Numbered from the stretch's first letter, positions 21,523 through 42,134 are shown. The stretch is DNA of 64,000 nt from Acidimicrobiia bacterium (GCA_029263095.1 JAJCYA010000043.1:2470-66469), one strand, 5' to 3'. Program-made: numbers and translations. The notes: a model not told the origin generated them from the letters alone.

Positions 21523-23364
21523 TCAGCTCCAGTCTGACTCGGCTCCACCCTTGCGGTTCGTCAGCTCGGTCTCGCCGTACTCGACCAGATTGCGGGCGCA
21601 GGATTTGCGCCATCCGGCGCTCTGGAGAGAGACGACCATGCTCTCCGAGTGATCGGCAAAGCCGCGCACGACCTCGTTCCAGGAGGGCAAGAGCGCACGA
21701 TTGATACCTTCCTCGAGCAGGGGATGGCGCGTGTGTAGCGGGCGGCCTCGCTGGCCCTTGAGACCGAATGAAGCGAGCAAGCCGGTGCGGAACGCCTCCC
21801 TGCGGTACTGGGGGACGTCGAGCAGCCGCTCAATCCGACGCAGCGCTGGTGTGGCCTCATCGGGTGAGGTGGACCAATCGGTCACCTCAGTCTTGATCGC
21901 CTTCGCCATGTTGGTGGCCGAGGTCTTGTAGTCGAGGACCGTGGCCTTCTGGAGTTCGATCTTGACCATCTCCTGATACTCGGCCTCGGTAGCGGCCAGT
22001 AGCTCGCTCCACCTCTCACGTTCGTCCTCGTCGAATCCTGCCCGTTGTGGCAGACCATCCCAAAGCGCCTGCATTACCGCCAGTCCGTCCAGGCAGCCCT
22101 TGGTCGTGCCCGCCACCTGTGAGAGGCGGTTGATCACGTATCGCGGGCTGAGTCCCGTCATGCCCTCATCGGGGTTCTCGTTGCGGGTTTTCTCGGCATC
22201 CTCCACCCCGCCGTGGGTGCCGTAGCGTCGGTCATAGAGGTGGAGCTTGCGGAGCAGGCCCTTTTGTCCGCCACCCGGGTGGATCAGGCGGGTGAGGACG
22301 GCGAAGGTTGCTGCGGTCTTGAGTGCTAGTTGGGAGACATCGCGTCGCCCGAGATCGGCTCCTGACAGCATCTTCTCGTAGATGCGAACCTCGTCGCGTA
22401 CCGACAACACGAAGGGGACCTTGATGACGACCAGCCGGTCGGCCATCGCCACCGCCTTGGGATTCTCGATGAGTTCCTCGTACTCGGCCAGGTTGCTCTG
22501 GGCAACGATCGCCTGATCCGAGTACATGGTCCCTGGGCCGCTTGTCTTTACCATTTGCTCCTGGCTGAGGCTGAGCAGTACAGCAAGGAACCGTTCGTCC
22601 ATCTTGAAGATTTCCAGAAGATCAGACATACCGCGGTGTGCTGCGTTGAGTTCTCCGTCGAATCGAAAACCCCGTCGGGCGGAACCGGGATCGTCGGCGT
22701 CTAGGGCGCTGACATCGACATCTCCCACCAGCCGCCGTAGGTCTTCAGAGCGAGGATCGGTGGCGACGAAGGTGCCGAATCCGCGGCCCTCGGCGACGCT
22801 GTAGAAGATTCGCTCGACGGGGACGCTCGCAACATCGTCCTTGTAGACGTGCTCCAGGAGCCAGCGTGCTTCGGGGTTGAGGTCGCCTTCGATGTGAACA
22901 CCGAGTTCACCTCGCATGTCCTCGGGAATCATGCGGAGCGGGTCCTCGTGCATCTGTGTGCCCTTTATGGCAAAGACCCGGCCGGCGTCGGTGTGGGTGT
23001 AGTCCTGGAGTCCCTGTTTGAGGGTGTTCACCAGGGTCGATTTGCCGGTTCCCGGCGGTCCGACCAGCAACAGGACTCGCTTGCGGACATCGAGTCTGCG
23101 CCCGGCGGCGCGGAAGTAGTCGGCGACCTGCTTGATGACGTGGTCGTGTCCGAAGAGTTCACCCGCAAACAGGTCGAAGATTTCCTCCCCGTCCGGGCCG
23201 GTGGATGTCCCGGCCGCTTCGATCGTGTCGGAGATGAGCGCGTGCGAGAGGCGAGCGAGAGAGGGGTCCTCCTGGACCATTCCGAGGTAATCGGCAAACG
23301 TCGTCTCTTCCGACACCTCACCTCGGCGCGACTTGATCCGTGCGAGGAGGTCTTTCGGGTCCAT
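21523..23364 (-). CDS. prkA: PrkA-family serine protein kinase (AAA+ ATPase N-domain + PrkA C-domain)
   Basis: 613 aa. Walker A LLVGPPGTGKST and the conserved PrkA/YeaG architecture. Confidence 0.85.
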   Translation of the reverse strand: MDPKDLLARIKSRRGEVSEETTFADYLGMVQEDPSLARLSHALISDTIEAAGTSTGPDGEEIFDLFAGELFGHDHVIKQVADYFRAAGRRLDVRKRVLLLVGPPGTGKSTLVNTLKQGLQDYTHTDAGRVFAIKGTQMHEDPLRMIPEDMRGELGVHIEGDLNPEARWLLEHVYKDDVASVPVERIFYSVAEGRGFGTFVATDPRSEDLRRLVGDVDVSALDADDPGSARRGFRFDGELNAAHRGMSDLLEIFKMDERFLAVLLSLSQEQMVKTSGPGTMYSDQAIVAQSNLAEYEELIENPKAVAMADRLVVIKVPFVLSVRDEVRIYEKMLSGADLGRRDVSQLALKTAATFAVLTRLIHPGGGQKGLLRKLHLYDRRYGTHGGVEDAEKTRNENPDEGMTGLSPRYVINRLSQVAGTTKGCLDGLAVMQALWDGLPQRAGFDEDERERWSELLAATEAEYQEMVKIELQKATVLDYKTSATNMAKAIKTEVTDWSTSPDEATPALRRIERLLDVPQYRREAFRTGLLASFGLKGQRGRPLHTRHPLLEEGINRALLPSWNEVVRGFADHSESMVVSLQSAGWRKSCARNLVEYGETELTNRKGGAESDWS

Positions 23365-24129: not shown

Positions 24130-25563
24130 CTAGGAGCAGGTGTAGTCGCGCTCCTCAGCAGTGGCGGCTATCCGACAGGCCATGCGGGGGAAGATGGCTC
24201 GGTGTACCGGGAGCATGACCCACCAGTAGAGGCGACCCGACAACCCGCGGGGACGGAACCATGCCGACTGCACGAGATCGGAACCGTCGCCGGTCTGTAG
24301 TGCCTCCCACTCGATCCAGGCCTCGCCTGGGAGCTTGATTTCGGCCCGGAGGCGGAGAACCTTGCCGGGCTCTACCGATTCGACTCGCCAGAAGTCGATC
24401 GCCTCACCGGCCCGTACGTCCGTCGGGTGGCGCCGCCCGCGACGTAGTCCAACACCTCCGACGAGTTGGTCGGTGAAGCCGCGAATTCGCCACGCCCAAT
24501 CGAGCCAGTAGTAGCCGTTGTTGCCACCAATCCGGCTGAACGCCCAGAAGAGGTGGGAGGCGTCGGCTTCGGTAGGAATGACCTGCCGATCCAGATAGGT
24601 GGTCCTTCCGTTCTGGCGTGGGTCGGTGACGGGAGGTTCGGTACTCGGAGCTCCGGCATCCGACCACCTCGTTGTGACGCCGGCCGGGAGTCGTTCGAGC
24701 GCCTTGCGCACGGCGACCCGAAATGGTGTCGGTCCGACCCGCTGATCGGGGGACCGGACGACGATCTCGTTTCGGAGGCCCTCGACCAGCGGTCGTACCG
24801 CGGACGTGGGAAGAGGTGTGACCAGCCCGATCCACGTCGAGGAGAGTCGCGGAGTCAGGAAGGGGACGCCGACGACCCGCCTCCGCCTCAGACCCGCCTC
24901 CTCGGCGTAGATATGCATCATCTCTTCGTAGGAGTAGATATCGGGACCGCCGAGATCGATGATGCGGCCACCGTCGTGCTCGAGGGCGTCAACGAGAGCG
25001 TCGAGGACATCGGTTACGGCGACCGGCTGACAGGCGGTGCGTACCCACTTGGGTGTGGTCATCACCGGTAGGGCCTCGGTGAGGCCACGCAGCATCTCGA
25101 AAGAGAGAGAGCCGGACCCGATGATGATGCCCGCTCGCAATTCAGTTACCGGAGTTAGGCCCGATGCGAGGATCCGACCAACTTCGTGTCGGCTGGCGAG
25201 ATGCTTGGACCGCGCCGATGCCGGCTCTCCGAGCGTGCCCAGATAGACAATCCTTGCGGCACCTCCGTCTGAGGCGGCTTCGCTGAAGATGGCTGCAGCC
25301 GCCCGATCACGCTCGTCGTAATCCTTGCCGCTTGCCATCGAGTGGACGAGGTAATAGGCAGCGTCACAACCAGCAGCAGCTTCCTTGACCGATGCCGCGT
25401 CGAGCACATCGCCCGTGGTGACTTCGACCTGGTGACGCCACGGCTGAAGATCGAGGTTCTCGGGTGAGCGCGCCAAGCATCGGACCTCGTGCCTGGCCTC
25501 CAGCAGACGGGGTACAAGCCGACCTCCGATGTAACCGGTAGCCCCGGTGACGAGGATTCGCAT
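24130..25563 (-). CDS. NAD(P)-binding NmrA/SDR-like domain fused to a DUF2867-type C-terminal domain
   Basis: N-terminal Rossmann motif ILVTGATGYIGGRLVPRLL. ~480 aa, two-domain architecture typical of this family. Confidence 0.7.
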   Translation of the reverse strand: MRILVTGATGYIGGRLVPRLLEARHEVRCLARSPENLDLQPWRHQVEVTTGDVLDAASVKEAAAGCDAAYYLVHSMASGKDYDERDRAAAAIFSEAASDGGAARIVYLGTLGEPASARSKHLASRHEVGRILASGLTPVTELRAGIIIGSGSLSFEMLRGLTEALPVMTTPKWVRTACQPVAVTDVLDALVDALEHDGGRIIDLGGPDIYSYEEMMHIYAEEAGLRRRRVVGVPFLTPRLSSTWIGLVTPLPTSAVRPLVEGLRNEIVVRSPDQRVGPTPFRVAVRKALERLPAGVTTRWSDAGAPSTEPPVTDPRQNGRTTYLDRQVIPTEADASHLFWAFSRIGGNNGYYWLDWAWRIRGFTDQLVGGVGLRRGRRHPTDVRAGEAIDFWRVESVEPGKVLRLRAEIKLPGEAWIEWEALQTGDGSDLVQSAWFRPRGLSGRLYWWVMLPVHRAIFPRMACRIAATAEERDYTCS

Positions 25564-25701
25564 GCGTGGCGCGAGGCTAGGCCGGGAATGATTGTTACGG
25601 GTCGGCGCCGTCTGCCGGAACAGGAGGACATTGGTGTTCTCGCCTACTGCCTTCCTACGACCGACCTTCAGCGCTCAGGTACAAGTGCCGATGATCGCTC
25701 C

Positions 25702-26826
25702 GTGAGCAGTGACCAGAGCCCCATTCGGGTAACCCACCTCATCCACGATCTTGGACCCGGAGGGGCGGAACATGTCCTGATGGACTTGGCGAGCGTCGCC
25801 GCAGATGCCGGGATCGCAATGTCGGTGGTCTCGATGCTCCCGTTGACCTCGTCTGGATACGTCGGCCGACTGCGCGACGCAGGGGTGCGAGTCGAGAGCC
25901 TCTGTCTCACCGCCTGGTGGGATCCCCGCGGTGCCCGGCGGTTGCGTCGGATGCTCCCCGACCTGCGACCCGAGGTGCTCCACTCACACCTCAAGCATGC
26001 CGACGTTGTCGGCGGACGAGTAGCGGTTGCCGCATCGATTCCCCATGTCTCAACCCTTCATGTGATCGAGGACTCGGTGGGCCTACTGGCGGCTCGCAAG
26101 CGGAACCTTGCCACGAGGTCTCGTCTCCGAACTGCCGGGCGGACGGTCGCCGTGTCCGATGCCCTACGCGATTGGTACCTGGATGTTTCGGGTGCAGATC
26201 CGAACACCGTCGTGACCATTCGCAACGGGGTACCCGACCCGGGCAGCTTTGACTCGAACGAATTGGCTGCTGTGCGGTCCGAGTTCGGCATCGCTCCGGA
26301 CGCAGTACTGGCGGTCATGGTTGCGGTGATGCGCCCCGGTAAGGGCCACGACGTGCTGCTCGATGCCCTGCAACATCTGGAGGATCATCGCGTCGTGTTC
26401 CTGCTGGTTGGGGACGGAATCGACTACCCGCGTCTGCGGGAACGTGCGAGCGAAACCCATCGCGTGGTGTTCGCCGGGTTCCGCGACGATGTCGGTCGGA
26501 TACTTGCCGCGGCCGATCTAGTCGTGCATCCCAGCCTCGGCGATGCGCTCCCCACGGCATTGGCGCAAGCCTTGGCCGCGGGTCGGCCGATCATCGCTTC
26601 GGCGGTGGGTGGGATCCCCGAGATGGTCCCACCTGACGTGGGCCAGCTGGTGGACCCAGGAGATCCAGCTGCATTAGCGGCCGCCATCGATCGCCTCGCT
26701 GCCGACGACGACGGCCGCAGCCGGATGGGCGAGATGGCTCGCCGGCAGTATGACGAGGAGTTCTCAGCGACGATGTGGGCCCAGCGGCTCCGCTCCCTCT
26801 ACCGGGAGTTGCCCAATCAGAGGTGA
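25702..26826 (+). CDS. glycosyltransferase family 4 (GT-B fold)
   Basis: N-terminal IRVTHLIHDLGPGGAEHVL. C-terminal GT1/GT4 domain with the E-x7-E-like region GFRDDVGRILAAADLVVHPSLGDALPTALAQALAAGRPIIAS. GTG at 25702 chosen. An ATG at 25588 is the alternative. Confidence 0.8.
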   Translation: MSSDQSPIRVTHLIHDLGPGGAEHVLMDLASVAADAGIAMSVVSMLPLTSSGYVGRLRDAGVRVESLCLTAWWDPRGARRLRRMLPDLRPEVLHSHLKHADVVGGRVAVAASIPHVSTLHVIEDSVGLLAARKRNLATRSRLRTAGRTVAVSDALRDWYLDVSGADPNTVVTIRNGVPDPGSFDSNELAAVRSEFGIAPDAVLAVMVAVMRPGKGHDVLLDALQHLEDHRVVFLLVGDGIDYPRLRERASETHRVVFAGFRDDVGRILAAADLVVHPSLGDALPTALAQALAAGRPIIASAVGGIPEMVPPDVGQLVDPGDPAALAAAIDRLAADDDGRSRMGEMARRQYDEEFSATMWAQRLRSLYRELPNQR

Positions 26827-26865
26827 CGAGGGCTAACGTCGAATGCAGTCAACCGGCGAGGACTG

Positions 26866-27213
26866 GTGGCCGCCAACGTCACGATCGCACCCATAGGAAA
26901 CGGCAAGGTCGATGAATGGCGTGCCTTTGTCTCCGATCTCGCCGGAGCCCGACGGATCGAGTGGGCACAGTCGCAGCGCCGCCGCGGGATAACTCGTCAG
27001 GTGATCACACTGGCCGAGGGCGATCCGGCGCTGGCCGTCGTCTATACGGAAGCTGGCGATGTGGAGGCGGCTGCCGACCGGTTGGTCGAGTCCAATGATC
27101 CTTTCGACGCCTGGTACCGGGAGCAAATGGTCGAACTCCACGACGAGCCGATGGACACCGAAGTCGTGTTCGACTCGGCTCCGCGACCCGGCCCTTGGCG
27201 AGGGTGGCGCTGA
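26866..27213 (+). CDS. small hypothetical protein (115 aa), second gene of the GT4-lipoprotein-uppS operon
   Basis: GTG start. Its 3' end overlaps the lipoprotein gene by 19 nt. No recognisable domain. Confidence 0.45.
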   Translation: MAANVTIAPIGNGKVDEWRAFVSDLAGARRIEWAQSQRRRGITRQVITLAEGDPALAVVYTEAGDVEAAADRLVESNDPFDAWYREQMVELHDEPMDTEVVFDSAPRPGPWRGWR

Positions 27214-28871
27214 TGCGGCGGTTGGCACTGATCGCTGTGGTGCTGAGTCTGGTGATCGCGGCATGTGGTGACGACGACGCGGTGTCGATCTTCACCTCGA
27301 CTTCGAACGGGTCCAGCTCTTTCGCGACGACGGGCGATATTGAGCCCTATCCCGCTCCCGTTGTTGAAGAGTACGTGACTGGATGCGCCGGAGAAGCCGA
27401 CGAGGGTCTGTGTCGCTGCACTATCGCCGAGTTCCAGCAGCGACTTACCTTGATCGAGTTCCTCGAATTGGTCGATACCGATCTCGATACCAGCCCCGTA
27501 GTGCAGGACGTGATACAGCTTTGCCTCACAGATGGATTCAGCGATTCGACGACCACCACGGTCGTCGCCGCCTCGACCACCACCATGGTCGTCGCTGCCT
27601 CGACCACAACGACCGCTCCCGAGTTTGAAGCGATCACCGACATCGAGACGATCACCCGCCTGACGATTGACGACCTGGAACAGTGGTGGTCGGCCGAGCT
27701 GCCGACGGTGTTTGGCACTGAGTACGAATCGGTGAGCGAATTCGGCCCCTACTTCATCTCGCAGGGTGATATTCCATTCTGCGGCGGTCCGCTCAAGCGA
27801 GACCAGTTCGAGGGCAACGCGTTCTACTGCTGGATCGACGACACGGTGCAGTGGGACGCCGAGGGCCTCATGGCGCCACTGTTTCAGGAATTTGGCGATT
27901 TTACCGTCGCTCTCGTACTCGCCCACGAGTGGGGGCATGCCGTCCAGGCCAGGTTCGGTTTTGACGACGTCAACCAGCCGACGATCGTGAGTGAACTCCA
28001 GGCGGACTGCTTGGCCGGCTCATGGACCGGCCGGATCGCTCGCGAGGAGAGTGACCTTCTACGCCTGGAGACCGGCGATCTTGAGGAGGCGATGGCCGGC
28101 TTCCTGCTGATAGGTGACGAGATCGGTACCGCCCCCGGAGGGGCCAACGCCCACGGTGGTTCATTCGATCGTCTCAACGCGTTCTTCGAGGGTTTCAACG
28201 AGGGCACCCCCGAGTGTGCAACTTATGAGGATTCGCCTCCGGACATCGTGTTCATCCCAGTCCTGATCAGCGAGGACCCGAACGAGAACCTCCTCGATCT
28301 TCCGCTCGCCACTGTGGCGCCGCAGCTTGTTGAGGCTCTCGAGGTGTTTTGGGCGATCGTCTATCCCGAGGTCTTCAGCTCCCCTTGGATTCCCGTGTCC
28401 GACACGATTCCGTATAGGCCGTCGGCGGGAGCGTTTCCGTCGTGTGGAGGATCCACCTTCGACCAGGCGTTCTATGAGGGCAATGCCTTCTACTGCTCGG
28501 CCGACGACTACGTGGCTTGGGATGACGAGGGGCTGTTCCCCGATCTCTACGGCGAGATCGGTGACTTTGCCATCGGGTTGGTGCTCGCCAACGAGTGGGG
28601 TCGGGCCGTCCAAAACCGAGCAGGGCTCCCGATCGAAACCGTGGCCGCCCAGCTCCAGGTGGACTGCCTCACAGGGGTGTGGACTGCCGCGCTCATCCCA
28701 GACGACAACCCCACAGCCATCCGCTTGTCGGCGGGTGATCTGGAGGAGGGAATCGCCGGCTTCCTGACCCTGCCGGCGAATCCGGGCGAGGGTGGCTACG
28801 TGTCGGCGTTCGACCGCTTTGAATCGTTCAAGGAAGGCTTCTTCCTCGGCACAGACGCGTGTGAACTCTGA
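27195..28871 (+). CDS. lipoprotein with two tandem YpfJ-like putative neutral Zn-metallopeptidase domains (first HEWGH intact, second NEWGR degenerate)
   Basis: Signal peptide plus lipobox (LVIAAC). Domain 1: AFYCWIDDTV...GDFTVALVLAHEWGHAVQ...ELQADCLAGSW...GDLEEA...IGDE...HG-S-DR. Domain 2 is the same pattern but reads LANEWGRAVQ. Thr-rich linker between the lipobox and domain 1. Confidence 0.75.
   Translation: MARVALMRRLALIAVVLSLVIAACGDDDAVSIFTSTSNGSSSFATTGDIEPYPAPVVEEYVTGCAGEADEGLCRCTIAEFQQRLTLIEFLELVDTDLDTSPVVQDVIQLCLTDGFSDSTTTTVVAASTTTMVVAASTTTTAPEFEAITDIETITRLTIDDLEQWWSAELPTVFGTEYESVSEFGPYFISQGDIPFCGGPLKRDQFEGNAFYCWIDDTVQWDAEGLMAPLFQEFGDFTVALVLAHEWGHAVQARFGFDDVNQPTIVSELQADCLAGSWTGRIAREESDLLRLETGDLEEAMAGFLLIGDEIGTAPGGANAHGGSFDRLNAFFEGFNEGTPECATYEDSPPDIVFIPVLISEDPNENLLDLPLATVAPQLVEALEVFWAIVYPEVFSSPWIPVSDTIPYRPSAGAFPSCGGSTFDQAFYEGNAFYCSADDYVAWDDEGLFPDLYGEIGDFAIGLVLANEWGRAVQNRAGLPIETVAAQLQVDCLTGVWTAALIPDDNPTAIRLSAGDLEEGIAGFLTLPANPGEGGYVSAFDRFESFKEGFFLGTDACEL
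27561..27614 (+). repeat. 27-bp in-frame tandem duplication inside the lipoprotein linker (VVAASTTT x2)
   Basis: gtcgtcgccgcctcgaccaccaccatg / gtcgtcgctgcctcgaccacaacgacc. Confidence 0.7.
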
Positions 28872-29641
28872 TGAATGCTCGTGACCTCATCCGCCGGCCG
28901 CTGTATCGGGTGTATGAGCAGCGTCTCCTTCGATCTCTGGATCGAATGCCCCACCACATCGGGGTGATTCATGATGGGCATCGTCGGTTTGCGAGAGAAT
29001 CCGGGCTTCCCGACTATGAAGCCTCCTATCGGGCGGGGATGGACAAGTTCGTGGAGTTCCTCGGCTGGTGCAAGGACTTCGAGATCCCGGCCGTGACTTG
29101 CTGGCTCTTGTCGCAGGAGAACCTCAACCGACCGGATGACGAGCTCAAGCCGTACTACCGGGTACTCATGGAGCTCTTCGACCGGCTGCCCGGCGATGTT
29201 CCCGACGCCCGAATCCGCGTCGTTGGAAGCCTCCACCTACTACCGGAGGATCTTCGCCAATCGGCGGAGCAGCTCGTCGAGCGATGCGGGTCGGGTTCAC
29301 GGCGGATCACGATCGCGCTCGCATACGGTGGACGCCAAGAGATTGTGGATGCGGTACGCGATCTGGTCGGCAAGCTGCGGGCGGAAGGGCTGGACGGTGC
29401 CGACCTCACTTCGGGAATCGATGCCGATACTCTCTCGGCTCACCTCTACACCGCAGACCTGCCGGATCCGGATCTGGTAATCCGAACCAGCGGCGAGAGC
29501 CGGTTGTCGGGGTTCCTGCTGTGGCAGGCGGCGTATGCCGAATACTCGTTCGTCGATGTCTTTTGGCCCGAGTTCCGTCGGGTCGACTTCCTGCGGGCAC
29601 TACGCGAATACACCCTGCGCGAACGCCGCTTCGGCCGCTAA
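28871..29641 (+). CDS. uppS: isoprenyl transferase (undecaprenyl/decaprenyl diphosphate synthase family, cis-prenyltransferase)
   Basis: 256 aa. Signature PHHIGVIHDGHRRFA (DGNRRWA-type) and ...RTSGESRLSGFLLWQAAYAEYSF. Start overlaps the lipoprotein stop. Confidence 0.9.
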   Translation: MNARDLIRRPLYRVYEQRLLRSLDRMPHHIGVIHDGHRRFARESGLPDYEASYRAGMDKFVEFLGWCKDFEIPAVTCWLLSQENLNRPDDELKPYYRVLMELFDRLPGDVPDARIRVVGSLHLLPEDLRQSAEQLVERCGSGSRRITIALAYGGRQEIVDAVRDLVGKLRAEGLDGADLTSGIDADTLSAHLYTADLPDPDLVIRTSGESRLSGFLLWQAAYAEYSFVDVFWPEFRRVDFLRALREYTLRERRFGR

Positions 29642-30044: not shown

Positions 30045-30719
30045 CTATCTCGTCAGGTAGGCCGGCGCCAGATGGGCGACGCTGTTTGCTTCCCACAGAC
30101 TCATGACGTGCTCGCCCGCGAGAGGTGTCGTTTGGAGTCGGATGATCCCCCCATGATTGGACACGAACCGTTCCCATTCCCACGGGGTTGGGTCAAGACC
30201 GAGCATATGTCCCAGGATGACAGCGTTGGTCCCGCCGTGAGCGACGATGACAATCCGGTGGTGGGTTCCGACGTCGTGCCAAAGGTGCTGGGTGGAGAGC
30301 CGCTGCACTCCGCGGTGGCGAAGTAGGGCTTCGATTGCCTCAGTCACACGCACGTGGAAGTCGCGGAATGACTCCCCACCTGCGATCCCATCCCACCACT
30401 CGCTGAGCGGACGGTCTCGTGCCTCGCGAAAGGTGCGCTCCACAACGTGGCTCGGTGTGTCGTCAAAGGGAACCCGGATCTCGACGAGATCGGCAATGGT
30501 GATGGCGGTCTTGCCGATGGAGTGCTCCAGTGGCTCGGCCGTTTCCACCGCGCGCCGTGCCGGAGAAACCAGAATGTCGTCGATACCGTCGAGCGCCGCC
30601 AACCTCGCCGCCACCGCGCGCGCTTGTGCAACGCCCAGAGGTGTCAGGCTCGGATCAGGAAGGGTTCTCCCGTCATCGATCCATGCGGGCTCACCGTGCC
30701 GAACAAGAATGATCTCCAT
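30045..30719 (-). CDS. histidine phosphatase (phosphoglycerate-mutase-like) family protein
   Basis: N-terminal ILVRHGEP catalytic motif. ATG at 30719 (MEIILVRHGE...). Track start 30728 is a TTG. Confidence 0.8.
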   Translation of the reverse strand: MEIILVRHGEPAWIDDGRTLPDPSLTPLGVAQARAVAARLAALDGIDDILVSPARRAVETAEPLEHSIGKTAITIADLVEIRVPFDDTPSHVVERTFREARDRPLSEWWDGIAGGESFRDFHVRVTEAIEALLRHRGVQRLSTQHLWHDVGTHHRIVIVAHGGTNAVILGHMLGLDPTPWEWERFVSNHGGIIRLQTTPLAGEHVMSLWEANSVAHLAPAYLTR

Positions 30720-30943
30720 GTCAGCCAATCGACTCGATACGGCGGATTATGGAAACAATCGTAGAGGTCCGCGCACGAGCGAGCGGCCAGCCCGCAGGTT
30801 GGCCGCCCGTCTCGAGGGAGGAAACGCCGTCTTCGACGACACTACGAACATCGTCATCTGGCGAGATCGCTTGAGCGTTTCTGGAGTGCCGCCGACGGAT
30901 CAGTTCGCCTCCTGGTCCGGCTTCTGCAATACAGTGTCTTTCC

Positions 30944-31558
30944 GTGAACATCACTGTGTCCCGATCTCCGTTGCGTCTGTTGACATTTGCACTGCTCGCG
31001 GTACCGGCGGTTCTGCTTGCGGTGGATATGACGGTCTCGCACCGGTGGATCCGCGCCCCTGAGTCGTCGGAGGTCGTTGTCGGGCAGACGTCGGACGAAT
31101 CGGGGGAGATGGTCGACCTGACCAAGGACGTACTCACCGACGTTGGACGGGCCGAACGTCGCCGTGACCTCCTCTTCGGCGGTGCTCTGTTCGTTGGTGG
31201 CGCGGCAGCGATGGCTTGGGCTCTCAAGGAACTCGCACGGCCGACGAGATTCCTGATCGCGGATGATGATGGGCTGCTCATCAAGGTCGATGGGGTTCGC
31301 CGCGCGCCGCGCCGCATTGCCTGGTCCGGTATCGCGGAAGTACGGTCTGGCCTGATCGAGGACGACGGTGTCGAGACACCCGTTCTGTCGATTCGCCTCG
31401 TCGATCCTGAAGCGGTTCCCCGCCTCCCGGCAGGAGGTCTCTCCGACCCGCCTTGGCTGCATCTGTTCTCCGACGAATGGGACAAGCCGGCTCATCGTGT
31501 CGCTGCGCTGCTGGAGCACCAGGTCGGAAAGGGCCAACCTGTCGGGGAGCCGGAGTGA
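30944..31558 (+). CDS. membrane protein with two TM helices followed by a bacterial PH (bPH_2-like) domain
   Basis: TM1 [16 protein letters not shown] and TM2 [19 protein letters not shown], then a ~100-aa soluble domain. GTG start. Stop overlaps the nfo GTG (GTGA). Confidence 0.5.
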
Positions 31559-32325
31559 GGATTGGCGCTCACGTTTCGAGTGAGGCGCCTCTTGAAGAGG
31601 CAGCGGCGCGCCAAGCAGATCTGATTCAGATCTTTCTGTCGAGCCCACAATCGTGGAAGAAGCCACTACCTCGTGACGACGCAGACCAGCTGATCGAAGC
31701 CGATACGCCAATCTACGTCCATGCGTCGTACCTGGTGAACGTCGGCTCGTCCAACAATCGAATTCGGATCCCGAGCCGCAAGATCATCGGGGACACCCTT
31801 ACGGCAGCGGCGGCGGTGGGGGCTGCCGGGGTGATTGTTCACGGTGGTCACGTCGATGACGATGAGGACCTGGAGGTCGGGTTCGAACGCTGGCGTAAGG
31901 CGCTTGACAGCGTGGATCTGGTCGTTCCTCTTCTCATCGAGAACACGGCTGGCGGTGGCAATGCCATCGTCCGCCAACTCGACAACTACGGACGGCTCTG
32001 GGAGAGGATCGGCGAGTACGGGGTTGGGGTCTGTTTGGACACATGCCACGCTTGGGCGGCCGACGAGGACCTGGCCACCGTTGTCGAACGGATCACGGAG
32101 ATGACCGGTGGTATCGACCTGGTCCACTGCAACGACTCACGTGATCCGCTCGGGAGCAACCGCGACCGGCACGCCAACCTGGGGGCTGGTGAGATTCCGC
32201 TCGATCTGTTGGTCGATCTCGTTCGCTCTGCCGGTGCCCCGGTCGTTGTCGAGACACCCGGAGGTGTCGAAGACCAGACCGCCGACATCGCACTACTACG
32301 ACAACGGCTGGCGACGAGCAAATAG
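31555..32325 (+). CDS. nfo: deoxyribonuclease IV / endonuclease IV-like (xylose-isomerase-like TIM barrel) AP endonuclease
   Basis: VRIGAHVSS...[13 protein letters not shown]...IVHGGH...[14 protein letters not shown]...IDLVHCNDS. The His/Asp/Glu metal ligands of the Nfo family are present. GTG at 31555. Confidence 0.75.
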
Positions 32326-32384: not shown

Positions 32385-32945
32385 TCAACACACGCCGCTC
32401 AGCAGGGCTGCCGCCCACTCTCTGGCATCGTCGCTGTCGAGGCCGGACATGGTCGCGGTGTAGGTCCGACCCTGAGCGTCGGAATGTGCCTCCATGATGA
32501 GGACCGCGTCTTGGATCTCGGTGTAGAACCCGGCATCGCACAGCGCGATGTCGGTAGACCCGCTGACGACACCAGCTCCGCTCATGCTCGCCTCGAAGCC
32601 GGTCCGGTCACCGGTACGCCAGGCGAGGGCTATTCCGTTGGTCGTGCCGAAGTAGGTGCAAGCGCTGCGGTCGTTGTTTGCCGCAAGGAAGGTATACGCA
32701 TTCCCCGCAATGGCCTGAACCGCGGCCTCGGGCCATATTTCCAAGCAATCGGTCGGTCCGGCGGCTGAGGTTGCAGGGACGGTCGAGCTGGTCGTCGGAC
32801 TGGTCGGGACTGTGGTGTTGCCTCCGCTCTGAGCGGTCGAGTCCCCAGGTGTTTCGAGGGTGGGAGGAACCAAGTCGGTCGTGTTGTCATCTCCGCAGGC
32901 GCCGATCACCAATAGGAGAGCCAGCAGGATCCAGAAGCGATACAT
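32385..32945 (-). CDS. hypothetical lipoprotein
   Basis: Signal peptide plus lipobox (LLVIGAC), a Thr/Ser-rich linker, and a C-terminal globular part with four Cys. Confidence 0.55.
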   Translation of the reverse strand: MYRFWILLALLLVIGACGDDNTTDLVPPTLETPGDSTAQSGGNTTVPTSPTTSSTVPATSAAGPTDCLEIWPEAAVQAIAGNAYTFLAANNDRSACTYFGTTNGIALAWRTGDRTGFEASMSGAGVVSGSTDIALCDAGFYTEIQDAVLIMEAHSDAQGRTYTATMSGLDSDDAREWAAALLSGVC

Positions 32946-33068: not shown

Positions 33069-34178
33069 CTACAGGCCGAGATACTCCGCAAGGGCTTCAT
33101 CGGTGCGATCCTCGCCGGCTGCGAACGCCTCGACGAACTCGTGAGCGTCGCCGTCACGGAATTGGACCGGTGGGCTCTTCATGAAGTATGACGAGGGGGC
33201 CAGCAGCGGGCCGCCGATCCCGTTGTCGAGTGCGATCTTCACGCAGCGAACCGCATCGATGACCACTCCCGCCGAGTTGGGGGAATCCCACACCTCGAGC
33301 TTGAGTTCGGCGTTCAGCGGCACATCGCCGAACGACTTGCCCTCGAGACGGATGTAGGCCCATTTGCGGTCGGTCAGCCACGCTACGTAGTCCGAGGGGC
33401 CGATGTGGACGTCATCCTCACCGATGCCATTATCGAGCTGTGAGGTGACCGACTGCGTTTTCGAGATCTTCTTGGACTCGAGACGCTCCCGTTCGAGCAT
33501 GTTCTTGAAGTCCATGTTTCCGCCGACGTTGAGCTGATAGGTGCGCTCCAACTCGACTCCGCGGTCCTCAAAGAGCCGCGCCAGCAGCCGATGGATAATC
33601 GTGGCACCCACCTGTGACTTGATGTCATCACCGACGATCGGCACCCCGGCGTCATAGAACCGACGAGCCCATTCGGGGTTGGAGGCGATAAACACCGGGA
33701 TGGCATTGATGAAGCCGACACCGGCTTCGAGCGCTGCCTCGGCGTAGAAGCGAATTGCATCTTCAGAACCCACGGGGAGGTAGGCGACGAGAACATCGGC
33801 CTTGCTCTCCTTGAGGGTGGCGACGACGTCTACCGGTTCGGCGGCAGATTCCTCGACGGTGAGTCGGTAGTACTTGCCGAGCCCATCGTGTGTCGGACCT
33901 CGCAACACTTGGACTCCGAGGTCGGGCACGTCACAAAACTCGTAGGTGTTGTTGACGCCGGCCCACATGGCCTTGCTGAGGTCTTGGCCGACCTTGGCCG
34001 CATCCACGTCGAAGGCAGCGACGAACTCGATATCACGGATGTGGTAGCCGCCGAGATCCACGTGCATGAGGCCAGGTACTGAGGTGCCCGGCTCGGCGTC
34101 GTCGTAGTAGTGGATGCCTTGGATGAGTGAGTTGGCGCAGTTGCCGACCCCGGCGATTGCTACTCGTACTTTGCTCAT
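33069..34178 (-). CDS. ino1: myo-inositol-1-phosphate synthase
   Basis: 369 aa. N-terminal Rossmann [18 protein letters not shown]. Matches the actinobacterial/archaeal INO1 family throughout. Confidence 0.9.
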
Positions 34179-35642: not shown

Positions 35643-35667
35643 AGCGCCCCGTTGCTCGTTGCCTCTT

Positions 35668-35696
35668 GGCCCCCCTCGTGGGGGCCCTTCTTTTTG
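35668..35696 (+). terminator. intrinsic terminator/attenuator hairpin 5 nt upstream of the pyrC start
   Basis: GGCCCCC-CTCGT-GGGGGCC followed by CTTCTTTTTG, a classic rho-independent structure. Located in the 5' leader of the pyr operon, not after a gene. Confidence 0.55.
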
Positions 35697-35700
35697 CCTC

Positions 35701-36771
35701 ATGACGACTATTCGCCTCCCCGGACTTGTCGACATCCACGTCCACATGCGTCAGCCGGGGGCGGAACACAAGGAGACGTGGGAGACGGGCACGGCTGCCG
35801 CTCTCGCGGGTGGCTTTGCGACGGTGTTCGCCATGCCCAATACCTCGCCCGCCGTCGTAGACGAGAGAACACTCGATCTGGCGCTCGAGACCGCAAGTAG
35901 CGGAGCGCGCTGCGACTACGCCCATTTCCTCGGAGCCGGTCTCGGCAACGTCGATTCTGTCGCCAAGTCGGCCGGCCGTGCTGCCGGCCTCAAGATGTAC
36001 CTCGGTGAGACCTTTGGTGATCTCCGTCTGGACGATCCCGGGCTCTGGGCGGCTCACTTGGAGCGGTGGCCGGATGACGGCGTGGTGGCGGTTCACGCCG
36101 AGGGGCCGTCCCTGGAAACCGTTGTTGGCCTTGCGGAATCGATGGAGCGGGCCATTCATGTCTGCCACGTGGCCGGCGCCGCCGACATCTCTCTGATTGC
36201 CGGCGCCAAGGAGCGAGGCGTTGCCGTCACATGTGAAGCCAGTCCGCATCACCTGTTCCTCGATCGGACCTCAGATCTCTCGTTCGGGCGTGCCGAGGTG
36301 CGACCCCGTCTGGGCACCCCCGAGGACCGACGAGCACTGTGGGATCACCTCGATGTGATCGACTGCTTTGCGACGGACCACGCACCTCACACACTCGCCG
36401 AGAAGGACGGAGCCAATCCTCCCCCCGGATTCCCCGGCCTGGAGACGGCGCTCCCACTGCTGCTCACCGCGGTTCACGAAGGGCAACTCACCCTTGACGA
36501 TGTGATCGAACGCCTGCACCTACGTCCGATCGAGATCTTCGGACTGCCGGTGGATCCCGACACGTGGGTCGAGGTCGATGTCGACGAGGAGTTCGAGATT
36601 GCCGCCTCCGGGATGAGCCGTTGTGGGTGGACGCCGTTCGCAGGCGCCCCGGTGCGGGGGATGGTCAACACCGTGGTGATCCGTGGGGCGACTGCATACG
36701 AGAAGGACCTGACTGTCGCGGCTGCCGGAACGGGCCGTGATCTACGATCGGAAGAGAGAAGGACCGAATGA
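35701..36771 (+). CDS. pyrC: dihydroorotase (or DHOase-like amidohydrolase) of the pyr operon
   Basis: ATG at 35701 ([20 protein letters not shown]...). Metal-ligand motifs DIHVH and DHAPH, and a Gly-rich region. Overlaps the pyrB start (ATGA). Confidence 0.8.
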
Positions 36772-37760
36772 CGATGACGCAGGAGGAGGAGAAGGTGAGG
36801 GCGACACACATACCCTTCGGGGATCAGCGGGATGCGCCCTTCTACGGGAGGGACATCGTCTCGGTGCGGCAATTCACCGACGACGACTTGACCTACATCT
36901 TCGATGTCGCCCATGAGATGCAACAGATGGTGGCGCGGATCGGCGCATTCGACCTTCTCAAGGGCAAGCTGCTCGCAAACCTCTTCTACGAACCCTCGAC
37001 GCGGACGTCCTCGTCGTTTACCGCTGCCATGGAACGGCTTGGTGGCAGTGTGATACCGATCAATGAGGTGACGTACTCCTCTGTGTCGAAGGGCGAATCA
37101 CTTCCAGACACTGTTCGGTCACTAGAGGCATATGCCGACGTCATCGTGTTGCGTCATCCCGAGAAGGGAGCCACCGCCCTCGCCGCTCAGTACACGAAGA
37201 AGCCGATCATCAATGCCGGCGACGGAGTGGGCGAGCATCCGACGCAGGCATTGCTCGACCTCTTCACGATCCTCGAGGAGTTGGGTGAAGTAGACGGCCT
37301 CACCGTCACCATGGTCGGGGATCTCAAATACGGCCGGACGGTGCACTCACTGGCGCGCCTCCTGTCGCGCTACGACGTGACTCTCAACTACGTCTCACCC
37401 GACATTCTCAGAATGCCGGAGTCGATCGTGGCCGAGATCGAGAACGGCGGAACCCCACAGATCGTCCACACCAACCTCGACGACGTCATTGCCGACAGCG
37501 ACGTGGTGTACGTGACGAGGGTCCAAAAGGAGCGGTTCGAGAATCCGGCCGACTACGACGCCGTTTCCGGCGCCTACGTCATCACACCCGAGACCATGAA
37601 GGTGGCCAAGGATCGGATGGCGCTCCTACACCCCTTGCCGCGAGTCAATGAGATCAGCATTGACGTAGACGACGATCCTCGTGCCGCCTACTTTCGTCAG
37701 ATGGAGTACGGCATGTATGTCCGGATGGCACTGCTGGCGTTGGTGCTCGGCAAGGCGTGA
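36768..37760 (+). CDS. pyrB: aspartate carbamoyltransferase catalytic subunit
   Basis: STRTS ([12 protein letters not shown]), HPTQALLD and HPLP motifs, 330 aa. An ornithine carbamoyltransferase is less likely given the pyr context. Confidence 0.85.
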
Positions 37761-39133
37761 CCACACCCTTCTTCCATCAGCTCGCGGAGCGGGTGACGGC
37801 GACCGGATCGCTGCTGTGCGTTGGTCTCGATCCTAGGGTTGAGACGCCTCGTCAGGCACTCGACCACTGCAAAGCCATCATCGCGGCGACGGCGCCACAG
37901 ATCGCCGTCTTCAAGCCCAACAGCGCCTTCTTCGAAGCCTTGGGGTCGCCCGGAATCGAGGCACTGGTGGAGGTCATCGCCGCCGTGCCCGAAGAGATTC
38001 CGGTGCTGCTCGATGCCAAGCGGGGCGACATCTCCTCGACCGCAGCCGCCTATGCCACGGCGGTGTTTGATCGTCTCGGCGCCGGCGCGGTGACGGTGAG
38101 CCCTTATCTCGGCAGGGACTCGATCGAGCCGTTTCTGGAGCATGAGGGCCGCGGGGTGTTCGTGTTGTGTCGGACCTCGAATCCGGGCGGCCGCGATCTA
38201 CAAGAGAAGGAACTCGGATCGGGCGAACCCGTATATGTGGAGGTAGCCCGAATCGCCGCCGGATGGGCGGGGGCGGACCGCCTGGGATTGGTGGTCGGTG
38301 CCACTGTCCCCGATGCCGTTGCCCGGGTCCGCAGTGTTGCTCCCGACCACTGGATTCTGGCCCCGGGCGTCGGTGCCCAGGGCGGTTCACTGGAGGAAAC
38401 CGTGGCCGCTGGGTTGCGGGAAGATGGGGCAGGCCTGCTGTTGCCGGTGTCGCGCTCTGTCGCCGCCGCCTCAGATCCGGCGGTCGCGGTGGCAGATCTG
38501 AACGCCGCCGTCGGGCAAGCCGGCAGGACCGTGAGTCGTACCGGGGCCGCGCCGGAGACGAGCCTTGCAGTAGAACTGTTCGATGCCGGATGTGTCCGTC
38601 TTGGCGACTTCGAGTTGAAGTCTGGAACACGGTCGCCGATCTACCTCGACCTGCGGACGCTGGCGGGTCATCCCCGCCTGTTGCGGAGGATTGCCGCTTG
38701 TTACATCCCTCTGCTCGGCGAGTCGGACCGCATCGCAGGTGTCCCGCTCGCCGGACTGCCGATAGCGACCGCAGTATCGCTGGAGTCGGAGATCCCGCTG
38801 GTGTACCCCCGCCCCGAGGCGAAGGCCCACGGCACCCGTTCGACAGTGGAGGGACCCTTCAGTACCGGTGACAGCGTGGTGGCCGTGGACGATGTTGCTA
38901 CCAGTGGAGTAAGCGTTCTCGAGGCGGCAGCACAATTGCGCGACGCCGGGCTCGTTCTCGAAGCAGCGGTGGTGCTCATCGACCGCCAGGGCGGTGCCGG
39001 AGCTGCATTGGAGAAGGAGGGCATCGAGCTGCGAGCGGTGATGAGCCTGATCGATATGGTGGGATTGCTGTTGGAGGCAGATCGCATCAGCGACTCCGAA
39101 GCTGCCCGGGTGTACGAGTTCCTTGGGGCCTGA
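37757..39133 (+). CDS. pyrF: bifunctional orotidine-5'-phosphate decarboxylase (type 2) / orotate phosphoribosyltransferase fusion
   Basis: N-terminal ~270 aa: LLCVGLDPR...[13 protein letters not shown]...LLDAKRGDI (type 2 PyrF). C-terminal ~180 aa: [17 protein letters not shown]...[13 protein letters not shown] (PRPP-binding motif of PyrE). Confidence 0.85.
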
Positions 39134-39135
39134 GG

Positions 39136-40122
39136 GTGTACCGAACCCTGCGCAGCATCGCGTTCCGCTTTGATCCCGAGCGGGTTCACACGGCCGCGAT
39201 CCAGTCCTATCGCTTGCCTCGACCATGGCAGAGACGATCGCCCGGCCACTCTCAGGTGCTGATGGGACTCGAGTTCCCCAACGTGGTCGGTCTGGCGGCT
39301 GGCTACGACAAGGATGCCCGCGCATGGCGGGGGCTGGCGGCGCTCGGCTTCGGCCACATCGAGGTGGGCACGGTCACCCTGCAGCCGCAGGCGGGCAACC
39401 CGCGTCCCCGTATCTTCCGTTTACCGGCCGACAGGGCCCTCATCAACCGGATGGGCTTTCCCAGCGAGGGGGCAGAAGCGGTGGCGGCAAGGCTCGCCGG
39501 TCGGCGCCCCGGCGGTCTGGTGCTCGGCGTCTCGATCGGTCCCAACGGGTTTGGTGAAGCGGAGCAGGCGGCTCGGGACTACGAGCAGTTGATCGACCGA
39601 TTCGCGCCACTTGCCGACTACCTGGCGATCAATGTGAGTTCGCCCAATACTCCCGGCCTACGCACGCTCGAAACGGGTGCCGATCTGAAGGAGCTGCTGC
39701 AACGAATCGTGGCGAGAAGAGATAGGCAGGCTGCGGCAACCGGTGCGCCTACCCCTCTGGTGGTCAAGCTGTCACCCGACATCGGTTCCGACGATCTGAC
39801 CACCACGATCGACTCGATAGAGTCGGCGGGAATCGATGGGATCGTCGTCACCAACACGACGACGGATCGGCCTGGTGTGACGACTACGGAGAGCGGTGGG
39901 CTGAGCGGTGCACCGCTGACGCCGCTCAGCCTGCGTGTACTCCAAGAAGTCAGGGATCTGACGGCCCTCCCTCTCATCGCATCCGGCGGGATCATGTCGA
40001 TGACCGATGCCCGAGTGCGACTCGAAGCCGGAGCTGCCCTGGTTCAGATCTACACCGGCTTTGTGTATCAGGGCCCGACTCTCGTCAGGTCGATCGCAGC
40101 CTTGTCGCCGGTTGACGCCTGA
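39136..40122 (+). CDS. pyrD: dihydroorotate dehydrogenase (quinone), class 2
   Basis: GLEFPNVVGLAAGYDKD...GFGHIEVGTVT...LAINVSSPNTPGLR...ASGGI. 328 aa with GTG start. Confidence 0.9.
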   Translation: MYRTLRSIAFRFDPERVHTAAIQSYRLPRPWQRRSPGHSQVLMGLEFPNVVGLAAGYDKDARAWRGLAALGFGHIEVGTVTLQPQAGNPRPRIFRLPADRALINRMGFPSEGAEAVAARLAGRRPGGLVLGVSIGPNGFGEAEQAARDYEQLIDRFAPLADYLAINVSSPNTPGLRTLETGADLKELLQRIVARRDRQAAATGAPTPLVVKLSPDIGSDDLTTTIDSIESAGIDGIVVTNTTTDRPGVTTTESGGLSGAPLTPLSLRVLQEVRDLTALPLIASGGIMSMTDARVRLEAGAALVQIYTGFVYQGPTLVRSIAALSPVDA

Positions 40123-40166: not shown

Positions 40167-42134
40167 ATGCCTCGGCTTCTGCTCTTTGGCGTTCTTGTTG
40201 TGGTTGTGAGCGCTTGCACCGGCGCAGAGTCGGTCTCGACCACCACCACTGTGGCGCCGCCGGAGACGACAACGACATCGACCATTCCCACGCCTTCGCG
40301 CCAGGGGATGGTTCCGGCACCCGACCTCGTCCGCAGTGCTGCCGCCGCTCGTGAGATCACCCAATTCGAGGCCGACCTGTACCTGTCGCTGGCCATGTTC
40401 TCGGTCCCAGACGCGATTCCCTTTGAGTATCTGGTACCTATCGCAGAGGCGGGCGCGGCGCAGTGGGATCACTCGGCGACGACGCGGCTCATCGAGCGAT
40501 GGGACGAACTCGACAGCGGTAGTCAGGAGGAGCTGTTGGATGCGGTTGATGGGTTGGCCGACCTGATCGAAGGCGACGCTCAGGGTTGTATCCCAATCAC
40601 ATCAGTGGATGCGGTGATCTGCGTGGGAGAAAGCATCTCGCACGACCAAGCCTTGGATCTTCCGCTGGGAGATGCTGCGGCGATCGTTCGTCCCTGGGTG
40701 CGGGAGGCGATGGAGGATTCCTGGCCCATGTTCGAGTCATTGTTCGGAGCTGAGCCCCAAGTGGTCGAGGTCTTTCTGTCCGATCTGACGGCGACGGGTG
40801 GGTACACCTTTGGGGCGGAGACCGGCGTGTGTCATCTATACGTGGATGTGTTGGCTCTCGAGGCGACCGACGACGGCCTGGTACACGCGGGTGATTCGAA
40901 CATCCCCGATGGTGTTCCCCTCCGTGCCCAGGTGCATGCGGCAGTCGCTCACCAGTTGTTCCACTGCTTCCAACGGGTAGCCCTGGCCGACTTCGACACG
41001 GCTCTGTGGGAGGGGACCGCGGTTTGGGCCGAGCACCACATCTACCCGACATCCAACACTGAGCTTCCCTGGATGGAAACCTGGATTTCGGATCCCGATA
41101 CGGCGTTCTCTGATCGCCTGTATGACGCGTCGTTCGTCTTCCTATATGCCGATCTCATGGGGGACGGAGAAGGTGCGGTGGCGGAAGTTCTCGAGGGCAA
41201 CGCGATCGCCCGACTCGATGCGGGATTCGAGGAGTTCTGGCATGAGATATCGGTCGCGGCGTGGAATCAGGGTCCGGTGGGCGCGTTGGTCGATGATGGC
41301 GGTGCTGCGCTCACCGCGACCGTCGGCGACCTCGATTCTGCGCCGATCGCGCCCGAGATCCAGGGAGAGATGAAGTTCTCGCTACCGCTCTACAGCCGTG
41401 ACACTCAGGCATTCGAATTCTTGAGCCCAGCCGATATGGAAGCCGCAGATCTGACCCGTCTGTGGCTCGACCTGTCGCGAGTGCCGAGTGATGTAAAGGT
41501 GTCGGCGATCGCCGAGACCGCTGAAGGCTGGTTGGATCCGGTTCTGCTGACCGGCGCCGAATGGGAGTTTTGCTGGGCGGCGATAGGTGCCTGTAGTGAT
41601 GTCGAACCGACGACGGTGCACACCTTTGCCCGAATAGTTCTGATCGCCACCAACGTCGACAACGGCGTTGAGACCTTCTCTATCCCGTGGCACACCTTCA
41701 ACCCGCACTTGACCGGAACTTGGGTGAGGGTGCAGGGGCCGATCTCTACGGTCGGCACCTCCCCGTTCTGGGTGATTGGAACCGAGCTCGGATTCGACGA
41801 GACGGCGCGGCTGATGACCGAAACCACCAGTGATTGGTCGCTTGCCAACGCCGAGACGGGTTGGGAGTGCACCCTTGCGGGTGAGTACTCGATCGGCGCC
41901 GACCCGGAGTACGGCGCTCCCGAATTGGGCAACGTGAGCGGCACGATCACTGTTGTCGGTCCCAGTGCGGGGGAGACGTTCACCAACGACTGCCTGCTCG
42001 GTGGCGTTGCGGCGAGCGGGGTTCATACTCCGATCGCTGAGGGCGGTGAGACGGTCGGATTCGAGATTCGCGATTACGACACCCTGTGGGTGTACGCCTT
42101 CGAGCGTTTCTACGTGTACGAACGGATCAGCTGA
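40167..42134 (+). CDS. large hypothetical lipoprotein (655 aa)
   Basis: Signal peptide plus lipobox (VVVVSAC), a Thr-rich linker, and no recognisable catalytic motif. One HQLFH segment is not a convincing HExxH. Confidence 0.55.
   Translation: MPRLLLFGVLVVVVSACTGAESVSTTTTVAPPETTTTSTIPTPSRQGMVPAPDLVRSAAAAREITQFEADLYLSLAMFSVPDAIPFEYLVPIAEAGAAQWDHSATTRLIERWDELDSGSQEELLDAVDGLADLIEGDAQGCIPITSVDAVICVGESISHDQALDLPLGDAAAIVRPWVREAMEDSWPMFESLFGAEPQVVEVFLSDLTATGGYTFGAETGVCHLYVDVLALEATDDGLVHAGDSNIPDGVPLRAQVHAAVAHQLFHCFQRVALADFDTALWEGTAVWAEHHIYPTSNTELPWMETWISDPDTAFSDRLYDASFVFLYADLMGDGEGAVAEVLEGNAIARLDAGFEEFWHEISVAAWNQGPVGALVDDGGAALTATVGDLDSAPIAPEIQGEMKFSLPLYSRDTQAFEFLSPADMEAADLTRLWLDLSRVPSDVKVSAIAETAEGWLDPVLLTGAEWEFCWAAIGACSDVEPTTVHTFARIVLIATNVDNGVETFSIPWHTFNPHLTGTWVRVQGPISTVGTSPFWVIGTELGFDETARLMTETTSDWSLANAETGWECTLAGEYSIGADPEYGAPELGNVSGTITVVGPSAGETFTNDCLLGGVAASGVHTPIAEGGETVGFEIRDYDTLWVYAFERFYVYERIS

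Follow-up and report, generated by a model that had tools for sequence, protein, structure and literature searches.

What connects a surface zinc peptidase, one of whose two catalytic domains has lost its metal ligands, with the prenyl-lipid enzyme encoded by the adjoining gene? We examined a 64-kb window of DNA from an Acidimicrobiia bacterium (GCA_029263095.1, JAJCYA010000043.1:2470-66469); the window is the whole stretch that was analysed, and coordinates are given here as positions in it. The ORF listing places four closely spaced open reading frames (ORFs) on the plus strand at 25702–29641, encoding a GT4 glycosyltransferase, a small protein, a lipoprotein with two tandem PF04228 (YpfJ-like) domains and a cis-prenyltransferase, and all four are as closely packed as had been stated in an earlier reading of the same DNA, referred to here as the original prediction. 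Comparison of orthologous loci defined the invariant core as a divergent SDR-DUF2867 gene, the lipoprotein gene and the cis-prenyltransferase gene that follows it, with the GT4 gene and the small ORF being accessory. With slightly better than even confidence, we read this cluster as a co-regulated envelope module, in which a surface pseudo-dimeric peptidase would be expressed together with a carrier-lipid-priming enzyme.

The lipoprotein (27213–28871, plus strand, 552 aa) matched the PF04228 profile in two stretches (1.5e-24, 87.4 bits against a gathering threshold of 23.2), which bears out the duplicated YpfJ-like domains proposed before. Databases already name it "neutral zinc metallopeptidase". 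Since its score of 94.1 bits with NF050010, the YpfJ/KPN_02809 equivalog model, is below the cut-off of 250, it is a relative of YpfJ and not an equivalog. Its predicted signal peptide and lipobox (27213–27266), MRRLALIAVVLSLVIAA-C, combine a positive n-region, a hydrophobic core and a site of the form [LVI][ASTVI][GAS]C, with the consensus ...AxACGDD around a Cys18 that is at least 90% conserved; the proposed lipoprotein nature thus holds. The AlphaFold2 (AF2) model (pLDDT 85.5, pTM 0.73) was a confident two-domain one, in which the PF04228 copies span residues 144–335 and 365–550 and form similar alpha/beta domains of about 190 aa each, longer than the 150 aa or so first estimated. Aligned over 194 aa, the copies share 43% identity (E = 1e-45), and fold comparison of the model indicates a zincin fold; searched by sequence against all PDB chains, the lipoprotein had no match at E <= 1.

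Ahead of the two copies, the model and the alignment place a four-helix Cys-rich domain (27345–27536), with helices at residues 48–108 (pLDDT >90) and four conserved cysteines, for which no family match was found. This domain is missing in P0113 and P0117, at both of which the cluster is still kept, and in a paralogue clade described below. It is joined to copy 1 by a Thr-rich linker, disordered in the AF2 model, where Tandem Repeats Finder confirmed the 27-bp in-frame duplication noticed earlier (27546–27607; period 27, 2.3 copies, 91% matches, score 103), encoding TTTVVAAS/TTTMVVAAS. Because the resulting 9-residue insertion lies inside a disordered linker and occurs only in the window protein among 39 aligned homologues, it is most simply a trivial linker expansion.

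Copy 1 (27642–28217) carries HEWGH at 27924–27938 (H238-E239-W-G-H242), the downstream Glu of ELQADC (E261) and H314; the HExxH and downstream Glu of PF04228 are found in copy 1 and are lost from copy 2. The motifs were followed in the 39 aligned homologues and in 28 out-group proteins, which are distant two-domain relatives from other Actinomycetota among the matches listed (those from the metagenome scan at no more than 39% identity). HEWxH, ELQADC and AHG of copy 1 were invariant in both sets (39/39 and 28/28, respectively), and the Glu stands 19 residues after the second His, a spacing resembling that of thermolysin. Judging from these residues, copy 1 would be a working, catalytically competent thermolysin-like gluzincin, with putative peptidase activity. 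Within the large PF04228 family, only KPN_02809 is known to have peptidase activity. It hydrolyses casein, and mutation of the first His of its HExxH removes both zinc binding and activity (PMC3269727).

In copy 2 (28305–28862) the corresponding motif reads NEWGR (28590–28604; N460-E-W-G-R464). The loss of both zinc-ligand histidines had been predicted, and it extends to the downstream Glu, since ELQADC of copy 1 is QLQVDC in copy 2 (Q480). With Asn, Arg and Gln at these positions, none of the three presumed zinc ligands remains. The fold is nevertheless retained in copy 2, along with GDLEE, F..R and four cysteines. Pairwise identity averages 57.3% in copy 2 and 59.5% in copy 1, and 29 positions of copy 2 are invariant. 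Conservation so close to that of copy 1, together with the retained cysteines and motifs, marks copy 2 as a maintained pseudo-enzyme domain, which appears to be under purifying selection with its metal ligands lost. By analogy with the inactive half of M16 peptidases, it may be a non-catalytic substrate-binding or scaffolding partner of copy 1.

The ligand states of copy 2, tabulated per sequence, formed a graded series: HEWGH...E, intact, in the paralogue clade (P0104, P0107 and P0112); HEWA[T/V]...E/S in deep orthologues; TQWGH...Q in intermediates; and NEWGR...Q in the window's own clade. Ligand loss was thus stepwise over the family in copy 2, while copy 1 was never altered. HExxH was also missing from copy 2 in 27 of the 28 out-group proteins, whose metagenome-assembled genomes (MAGs) are labelled Mycobacterium, Mycobacteriales, Kribbellaceae, Ilumatobacteraceae and others, which indicates that the tandem of a live and a dead copy arose early, is spread widely over Actinomycetota and is no peculiarity of this locus. 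Could copy 2 still be active, with alternative metal ligands or in a different reaction? Its strong conservation would be in line with this, as would the retention in the window protein of Glu461, at the position of the HExxH Glu. On the other hand, the window's clade has non-ligating Asn, Arg and Gln at the three ligand positions; these positions vary by subclade (T/H, H/T/V and E/S/Q) with no conserved replacement set; and in KPN_02809 replacing the first His alone is enough to abolish zinc binding and activity (PMC3269727). We therefore consider an active copy 2 highly improbable.

The paralogue clade at the intact end of this series comprises proteins of about 480 aa with both HEWGH...E sites intact. 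At 3/3 of its loci (L084 7001–9374, L169 7001–9351 and L170 4441–6838), a GT2 glycosyltransferase gene lies directly downstream and a divergent BipA gene upstream, which makes a second, different peptidase-glycosyltransferase pairing. We considered whether this GT2 is a polyprenol-phosphate sugar synthase and rejected the assignment, as only generic TuaG/EpsE-like matches were obtained, far under the cut-offs.

The cis-prenyltransferase gene (28871–29641, plus strand) matched PF01255 (9.3e-63), and its score of 189.9 bits with TIGR00055, the generic cis-IPPS model, exceeds the cut-off of 109.55 bits, so that its superfamily membership is secure. The top NCBIfam model was NF011403, followed by NF011409, and Rv1086 itself gives the identical ranking. 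The best solved chains were 2vg1/2vfw (Rv1086) at 199 bits, with UPPS/DPPS at about 115–130 bits and Rv2361c at about 115. Given its best PDB match and the shared NCBIfam ranking, the gene is an Rv1086-type paralogue, where a generic UppS had been predicted, and its product is presumed to be a short-chain Z-prenyl diphosphate of the C15 type. In Mycobacterium tuberculosis, Rv1086 makes E,Z-farnesyl diphosphate (E,Z-FPP), which is elongated by Rv2361c (PMC6450523). No second cis-prenyltransferase was found within the 64-kb window.

How constant is the association of these two genes? The 12 orthologous loci (the window, L002–L005, L082, L083, L085, L166–L168 and L171) encode lipoproteins with 42–59% identity to that of the window. 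At 11/11 evaluable loci the cis-prenyltransferase gene follows the lipoprotein gene, and at 11/11 the SDR-DUF2867 gene immediately precedes the cluster, in divergent orientation. In the window the latter occupies 24130–25563 on the minus strand; it matched DUF2867 (8.6e-32) and NAD_binding_10 (3.7e-17), and its best solved relatives are atypical SDRs of the NDUFA9 type, so that it may be described as an NDUFA9/NmrA-like SDR. Five loci (L085, L166, L167, L168 and L171), at 42–50% lipoprotein identity, have the core intact although both outer flanks are unrelated to those of the window; gene order and orientation are thus kept as in a conserved gene cluster. Two of these carry an AtuA-family gene (PF07287) between the lipoprotein and synthase genes (L166 4800–6560 and L168 8645–10402), and a DUF1295 gene with a weak Steroid_dh match stands beside SDR-DUF2867 in L082, L085 and L168. 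The original prediction had made its case depend on conservation of the neighbourhood in relatives; conservation was indeed found, but the conserved unit is not the proposed run from GT4 through the small protein and lipoprotein to UppS, and includes SDR-DUF2867. It was right that the pairing of lipoprotein, synthase and GT4 is undescribed, insofar as our literature search found no paper on it. The search also found nothing relevant on tandem pseudo-protease lipoproteins, and no paper on a live/dead tandem decay series, on the linkage of an Rv1086-type synthase with SDR-DUF2867 or on a DUF6176-like partner.

The GT4 gene (25702–26826, plus strand) belongs to the GT4/GT-B glycosyltransferases, having an N-terminal Glyco_transf_4 and a C-terminal Glycos_transf_1 domain (Pfam matches: Glyco_trans_1_4 1.7e-30 and Glyco_transf_4 2.7e-18). 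None of the GT4 subfamilies of known specificity (MshA, BshA, PimA, TuaC and others) could be assigned, the best NCBIfam model reaching 135.6 bits against a cut-off of 409; the closest solved chains were BshA/MshA-like, at 55–71 bits. The gene is present in 9 of the 12 loci and missing from L004, L082 and L171, and it is therefore an accessory, not a core, member. The small ORF (26866–27213, plus strand, 115 aa), present in 10/12 loci, is likewise accessory. The polyprenyl-phosphate-linked glycan pathway suggested before is plausible in itself; yet with GT4 absent from 3/12 loci and of no assignable specificity, and the small ORF absent from 2/12, a glycan pathway built on GT4 is not an invariant feature of the locus.

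The small ORF itself had no match in Pfam and NCBIfam at 0.01. It has 86 conserved homologues, and a profile search starting from it reached 930 representatives, many of which are tandem forms of about 240 aa or SnoaL fusions. Its score with DUF6176 (PF19673), 15.6 bits, is under the gathering threshold of 27; 10 of 38 family members matched DUF6176 weakly, and relatives from the profile search scored up to 46 bits. The product is thus a divergent DUF6176 relative, a cytoplasmic alpha+beta-barrel protein (ferredoxin-like), with a fold that is also used by mutarotases and polyketide cyclases. Its disordered C-terminal tail (27172–27210 in the window) has a strongly conserved PxPGPWRGW motif, which could be an interaction or membrane-contact peptide. 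The possibility that the WRGWR tail is a mere by-product of the ribosome-binding site of the next gene was ruled out, as the motif is kept in the protein despite synonymous codon changes and at a variable distance, 0–9 codons, from the stop.

The junctions between the genes are tight. A gap of 39 nt separates GT4 from the small ORF; for GT4, one gene caller chose the alternative start ATG 25588. The stop codon of the small ORF (TGA, 27211–27213) has one base in common with the lipoprotein start ATG 27213, as does the lipoprotein stop TGA with the cis-prenyltransferase start ATG 28871. Of the 19-nt and 1-nt overlaps originally predicted at these two junctions, the second stands, while the first requires the upstream start TTG 27195. 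Considering the 1-nt overlap with TGA, the GAGGG found 8 nt 5' of ATG 27213 and the use of this start by the database copy P0001 (552 aa, 100% identical), ATG 27213 is the most likely start of the lipoprotein, which shortens the 558 aa of the original prediction to 552. The small-ORF stop overlaps the lipoprotein start (ATGA/GTGA) in 8/8 other loci where a motif search located the tail, and this constancy suggests that the two genes are translationally coupled and that the coupling is conserved.

The cluster is bounded by the divergent SDR-DUF2867 gene upstream and by a convergent gene downstream (30045–30728, minus strand). Presumably, the 138-bp divergent intergenic region (25564–25701), the counterparts of which measure 77–200 nt in the orthologous loci, holds the promoters of both transcription units. 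The short spacing, the overlapping stop and start codons and the recurrence elsewhere of the overlap between small ORF and lipoprotein all support an operon. An Rfam scan of the entire window found no family at threshold and no RNA element. The base composition of the window is uniform (GC content 0.60–0.66), and thus gives no sign of recent transfer.

Taken as a co-regulated envelope module, the locus would be a lineage-specific cluster of an uncultured Acidimicrobiia clade and is probably co-transcribed. The lipoprotein would be an extracytoplasmic, lipid-anchored pseudo-dimer derived from an old tandem duplication, in which copy 1 would cleave and copy 2 may act as its binding or scaffold partner. 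By analogy with Rv1086 in mycobacteria, the synthase presumably provides the short primer, in Z configuration, from which the polyprenyl-phosphate carrier is built. Genes of the AtuA family and of DUF1295 would be occasional members of the cluster. What links these genes is then most likely the co-regulation of envelope functions, with one product supplying carrier lipid, another transferring sugar in the cytoplasm and a third acting as a protease at the surface. From what is generally known of actinobacterial lipoproteins, the Thr-rich linker is a plausible target of polyprenyl-phosphate(-mannose)-dependent O-glycosylation.

Several observations weigh against this reading. The lipoprotein would lie outside the membrane and the synthase, GT4 and small protein in the cytoplasm, with no direct biochemical coupling evident. 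The NF011403 score of the synthase, 296.3 bits, is under the equivalog cut-off of 348. A scan for sigma-70 consensus promoters and terminators detected none, although such a scan is uninformative for this phylum. At 31 distant two-domain relatives, among the matches listed, no core neighbours were found; as distant tandem PF04228 proteins lack such neighbours, the link is clade-specific and could be a historical accident. GT4 and the small ORF are dispensable across loci. Moreover, the window, L003 and L082 are syntenic well past the cluster, over genes for PrkA, a DUF308-like protein, orf204, Nfo, inositol-1-phosphate synthase and pyrimidine synthesis, with wider synteny also in L083. This weakens the inference from L003, L082 and L083, and part of the conservation must be plain inheritance.

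Perhaps, then, there is no functional unit at all, and unrelated housekeeping genes have simply been inherited side by side in a genome that is compact and rich in GC, and in which adjacent genes often overlap by a few bases. The wider synteny, the coming and going of GT4 and the small ORF, the 31 distant relatives without the link and the difference in compartments could all be understood in this way. Inheritance alone, however, does not readily account for a core that stays intact and co-oriented in the five loci with different flanks, at 42–50% identity, nor for the insertion of AtuA genes inside the cluster of L166 and L168 without breaking it, nor for the conserved start/stop overlap of small ORF and lipoprotein. 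We therefore regard it as unlikely, if still a serious alternative, and retain the co-regulated envelope module.

The genes that recur beside the core raise another alternative, in which the cluster makes or remodels a specialised short-chain isoprenoid (glyco)lipid instead of the general carrier: the synthase would provide a C15 Z-prenyl unit, AtuA, DUF1295 and SDR-DUF2867 would modify it, GT4 would glycosylate it and, at the surface, the lipoprotein would handle this product or a protein associated with it. AtuA takes its name from acyclic terpene utilisation, the DUF1295 gene has its weak Steroid_dh match, the synthase groups with a short-chain enzyme, and the small protein shares its fold with mutarotases and polyketide cyclases and has relatives fused to SnoaL. 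But AtuA occurs in only 2/11 loci and DUF1295 in 3, neither is present in the window, nothing identified was a terpene cyclase or an enzyme specific to lipids, and the family names are annotations; such a pathway seems doubtful to us. Fainter still is the prospect that the core, with DUF1295 and AtuA as occasional members, is a new actinobacterial system, in which a cytoplasmic short-chain Z-prenyl lipid or prenyl-modified molecule would be recognised or processed at the surface by the half-dead peptidase, copy 2 having been re-purposed as a lipid- or glycan-binding module. If so, bacteria would have an analogue of prenyl-dependent protease processing, though one alike in its logic alone.

Other PF04228 and cis-prenyltransferase neighbourhoods were also compared. 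In an unrelated Actinomycetota MAG (L044 6893–8585), a decaprenyl/UppS-type cis-prenyltransferase gene is followed after 74 nt by the gene of a single-domain PF04228 lipoprotein (AHEWGH, ELQADC), with znuBCA-type zinc-uptake-like genes on the opposite strand, as judged by eye from ORF translations. We rejected it as a sign of a general PF04228-UppS link, since it is the sole cis-prenyltransferase neighbour among about 140 non-orthologous loci, among the matches listed, and the enzyme is the other paralogue, falling in the decaprenyl-type (Rv2361c) NCBIfam models, and it stands next to the zinc-uptake-like genes; the adjacency is probably a coincidence. A HlyIII-family gene is found near the cluster in L168 (1–3) and L171 (3589–4230). 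In M. tuberculosis the HlyIII-like Rv1085c is adjacent to Rv1086, and the HlyIII genes of L168 and L171 may thus be left over from an earlier actinobacterial setting of the Z-prenyl synthase. PF04228 proteins may also recur beside START-like lipid-binding proteins, if Rv2575 is a PF04228 protein and DUF2867 also belongs to the Bet v 1/START-like clan. A 2026 START-domain review, in its table of START-like proteins of M. tuberculosis, gives rv2575 as sharing an operon with the START-like Rv2574 (PMC13525633).

The rest of the window contains further genes around the cluster. Another predicted lipoprotein (32385–32945, minus strand, 186 aa) had no Pfam match; its lipobox is likewise "...GACGDD", and its linker is rich in Ser, Thr and Pro. 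At 30944–32325 (plus strand), a 204-aa ORF without Pfam match is followed by endonuclease IV Nfo, an arrangement that is also found downstream of the cluster, in synteny, in L003, L082 and L083. As listed, the Nfo ORF shares about 105 nt with orf204 and its family match begins at residue 35, so that Nfo probably starts near 31555 instead. The surrounding housekeeping genes (21523–23364, minus; 33069–34178, minus; 35659–40122, plus; 45366–46724, plus) encode a PrkA-type AAA kinase, myo-inositol-1-phosphate synthase, a pyrimidine biosynthesis run (amidohydrolase, OTCace, an OMP decarboxylase/PRT fusion and DHODH) and DnaB. Two large ORFs, 40167–42134 (plus, 655 aa) and 48851–51388 (minus, 845 aa), are putative genes with no Pfam match at 1e-5.

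All of the proteins of the cluster come from known families, and existing knowledge is not overturned. The series that leads from a live copy 1 with a live partner to a pseudo-enzyme copy 2 offers a clean natural case for the origin and role of pseudo-proteases, and the strict link that one clade shows with an Rv1086-type synthase and SDR-DUF2867 is an initial genomic clue to the function of PF04228. For carrier-lipid synthesis, Acidimicrobiia probably use the mycobacterial two-enzyme route, in which a Z-FPP primer is made and then elongated.

Compared with known systems, copy 1 shares with YpfJ/KPN_02809 the HExxH, the Glu of ELQADC and a conserved Arg flagged near the zinc in KPN_02809 (PMC3269727). 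It differs in reading HEWGHA, as against the HExGHH implied by the name of NF050010, and the enterobacterial proteins are single-domain and about 285 aa long, whereas the window protein is a 552-aa lipoprotein with a Cys-rich N-domain and a second, ligand-less copy. To thermolysin-like gluzincins, M13 and M48, the lipoprotein has only 9–17% sequence identity. The M16 pitrilysin-type peptidases (insulin-degrading enzyme and the mitochondrial processing peptidase alpha/beta) share with it the principle of a live half and a conserved ligand-less half; they are inverzincins (HxxEH), not gluzincins (HExxH), and have an unrelated fold, so that the likeness is one of analogy only, and this analysis gave no evidence of an M16-like chamber between the two PF04228 domains. 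The small protein resembles the DUF6176 and rhamnose-mutarotase-like dimeric alpha+beta barrels but differs in scoring below the Pfam threshold and in its clade-specific PGPWRGW tail. Rv1086 has a HlyIII neighbour, which near window-type clusters is found only in L168 and L171; as for the enzyme itself (PDB 2vg0/2vg1), it aligns with the window synthase without gaps through the alpha3 region.

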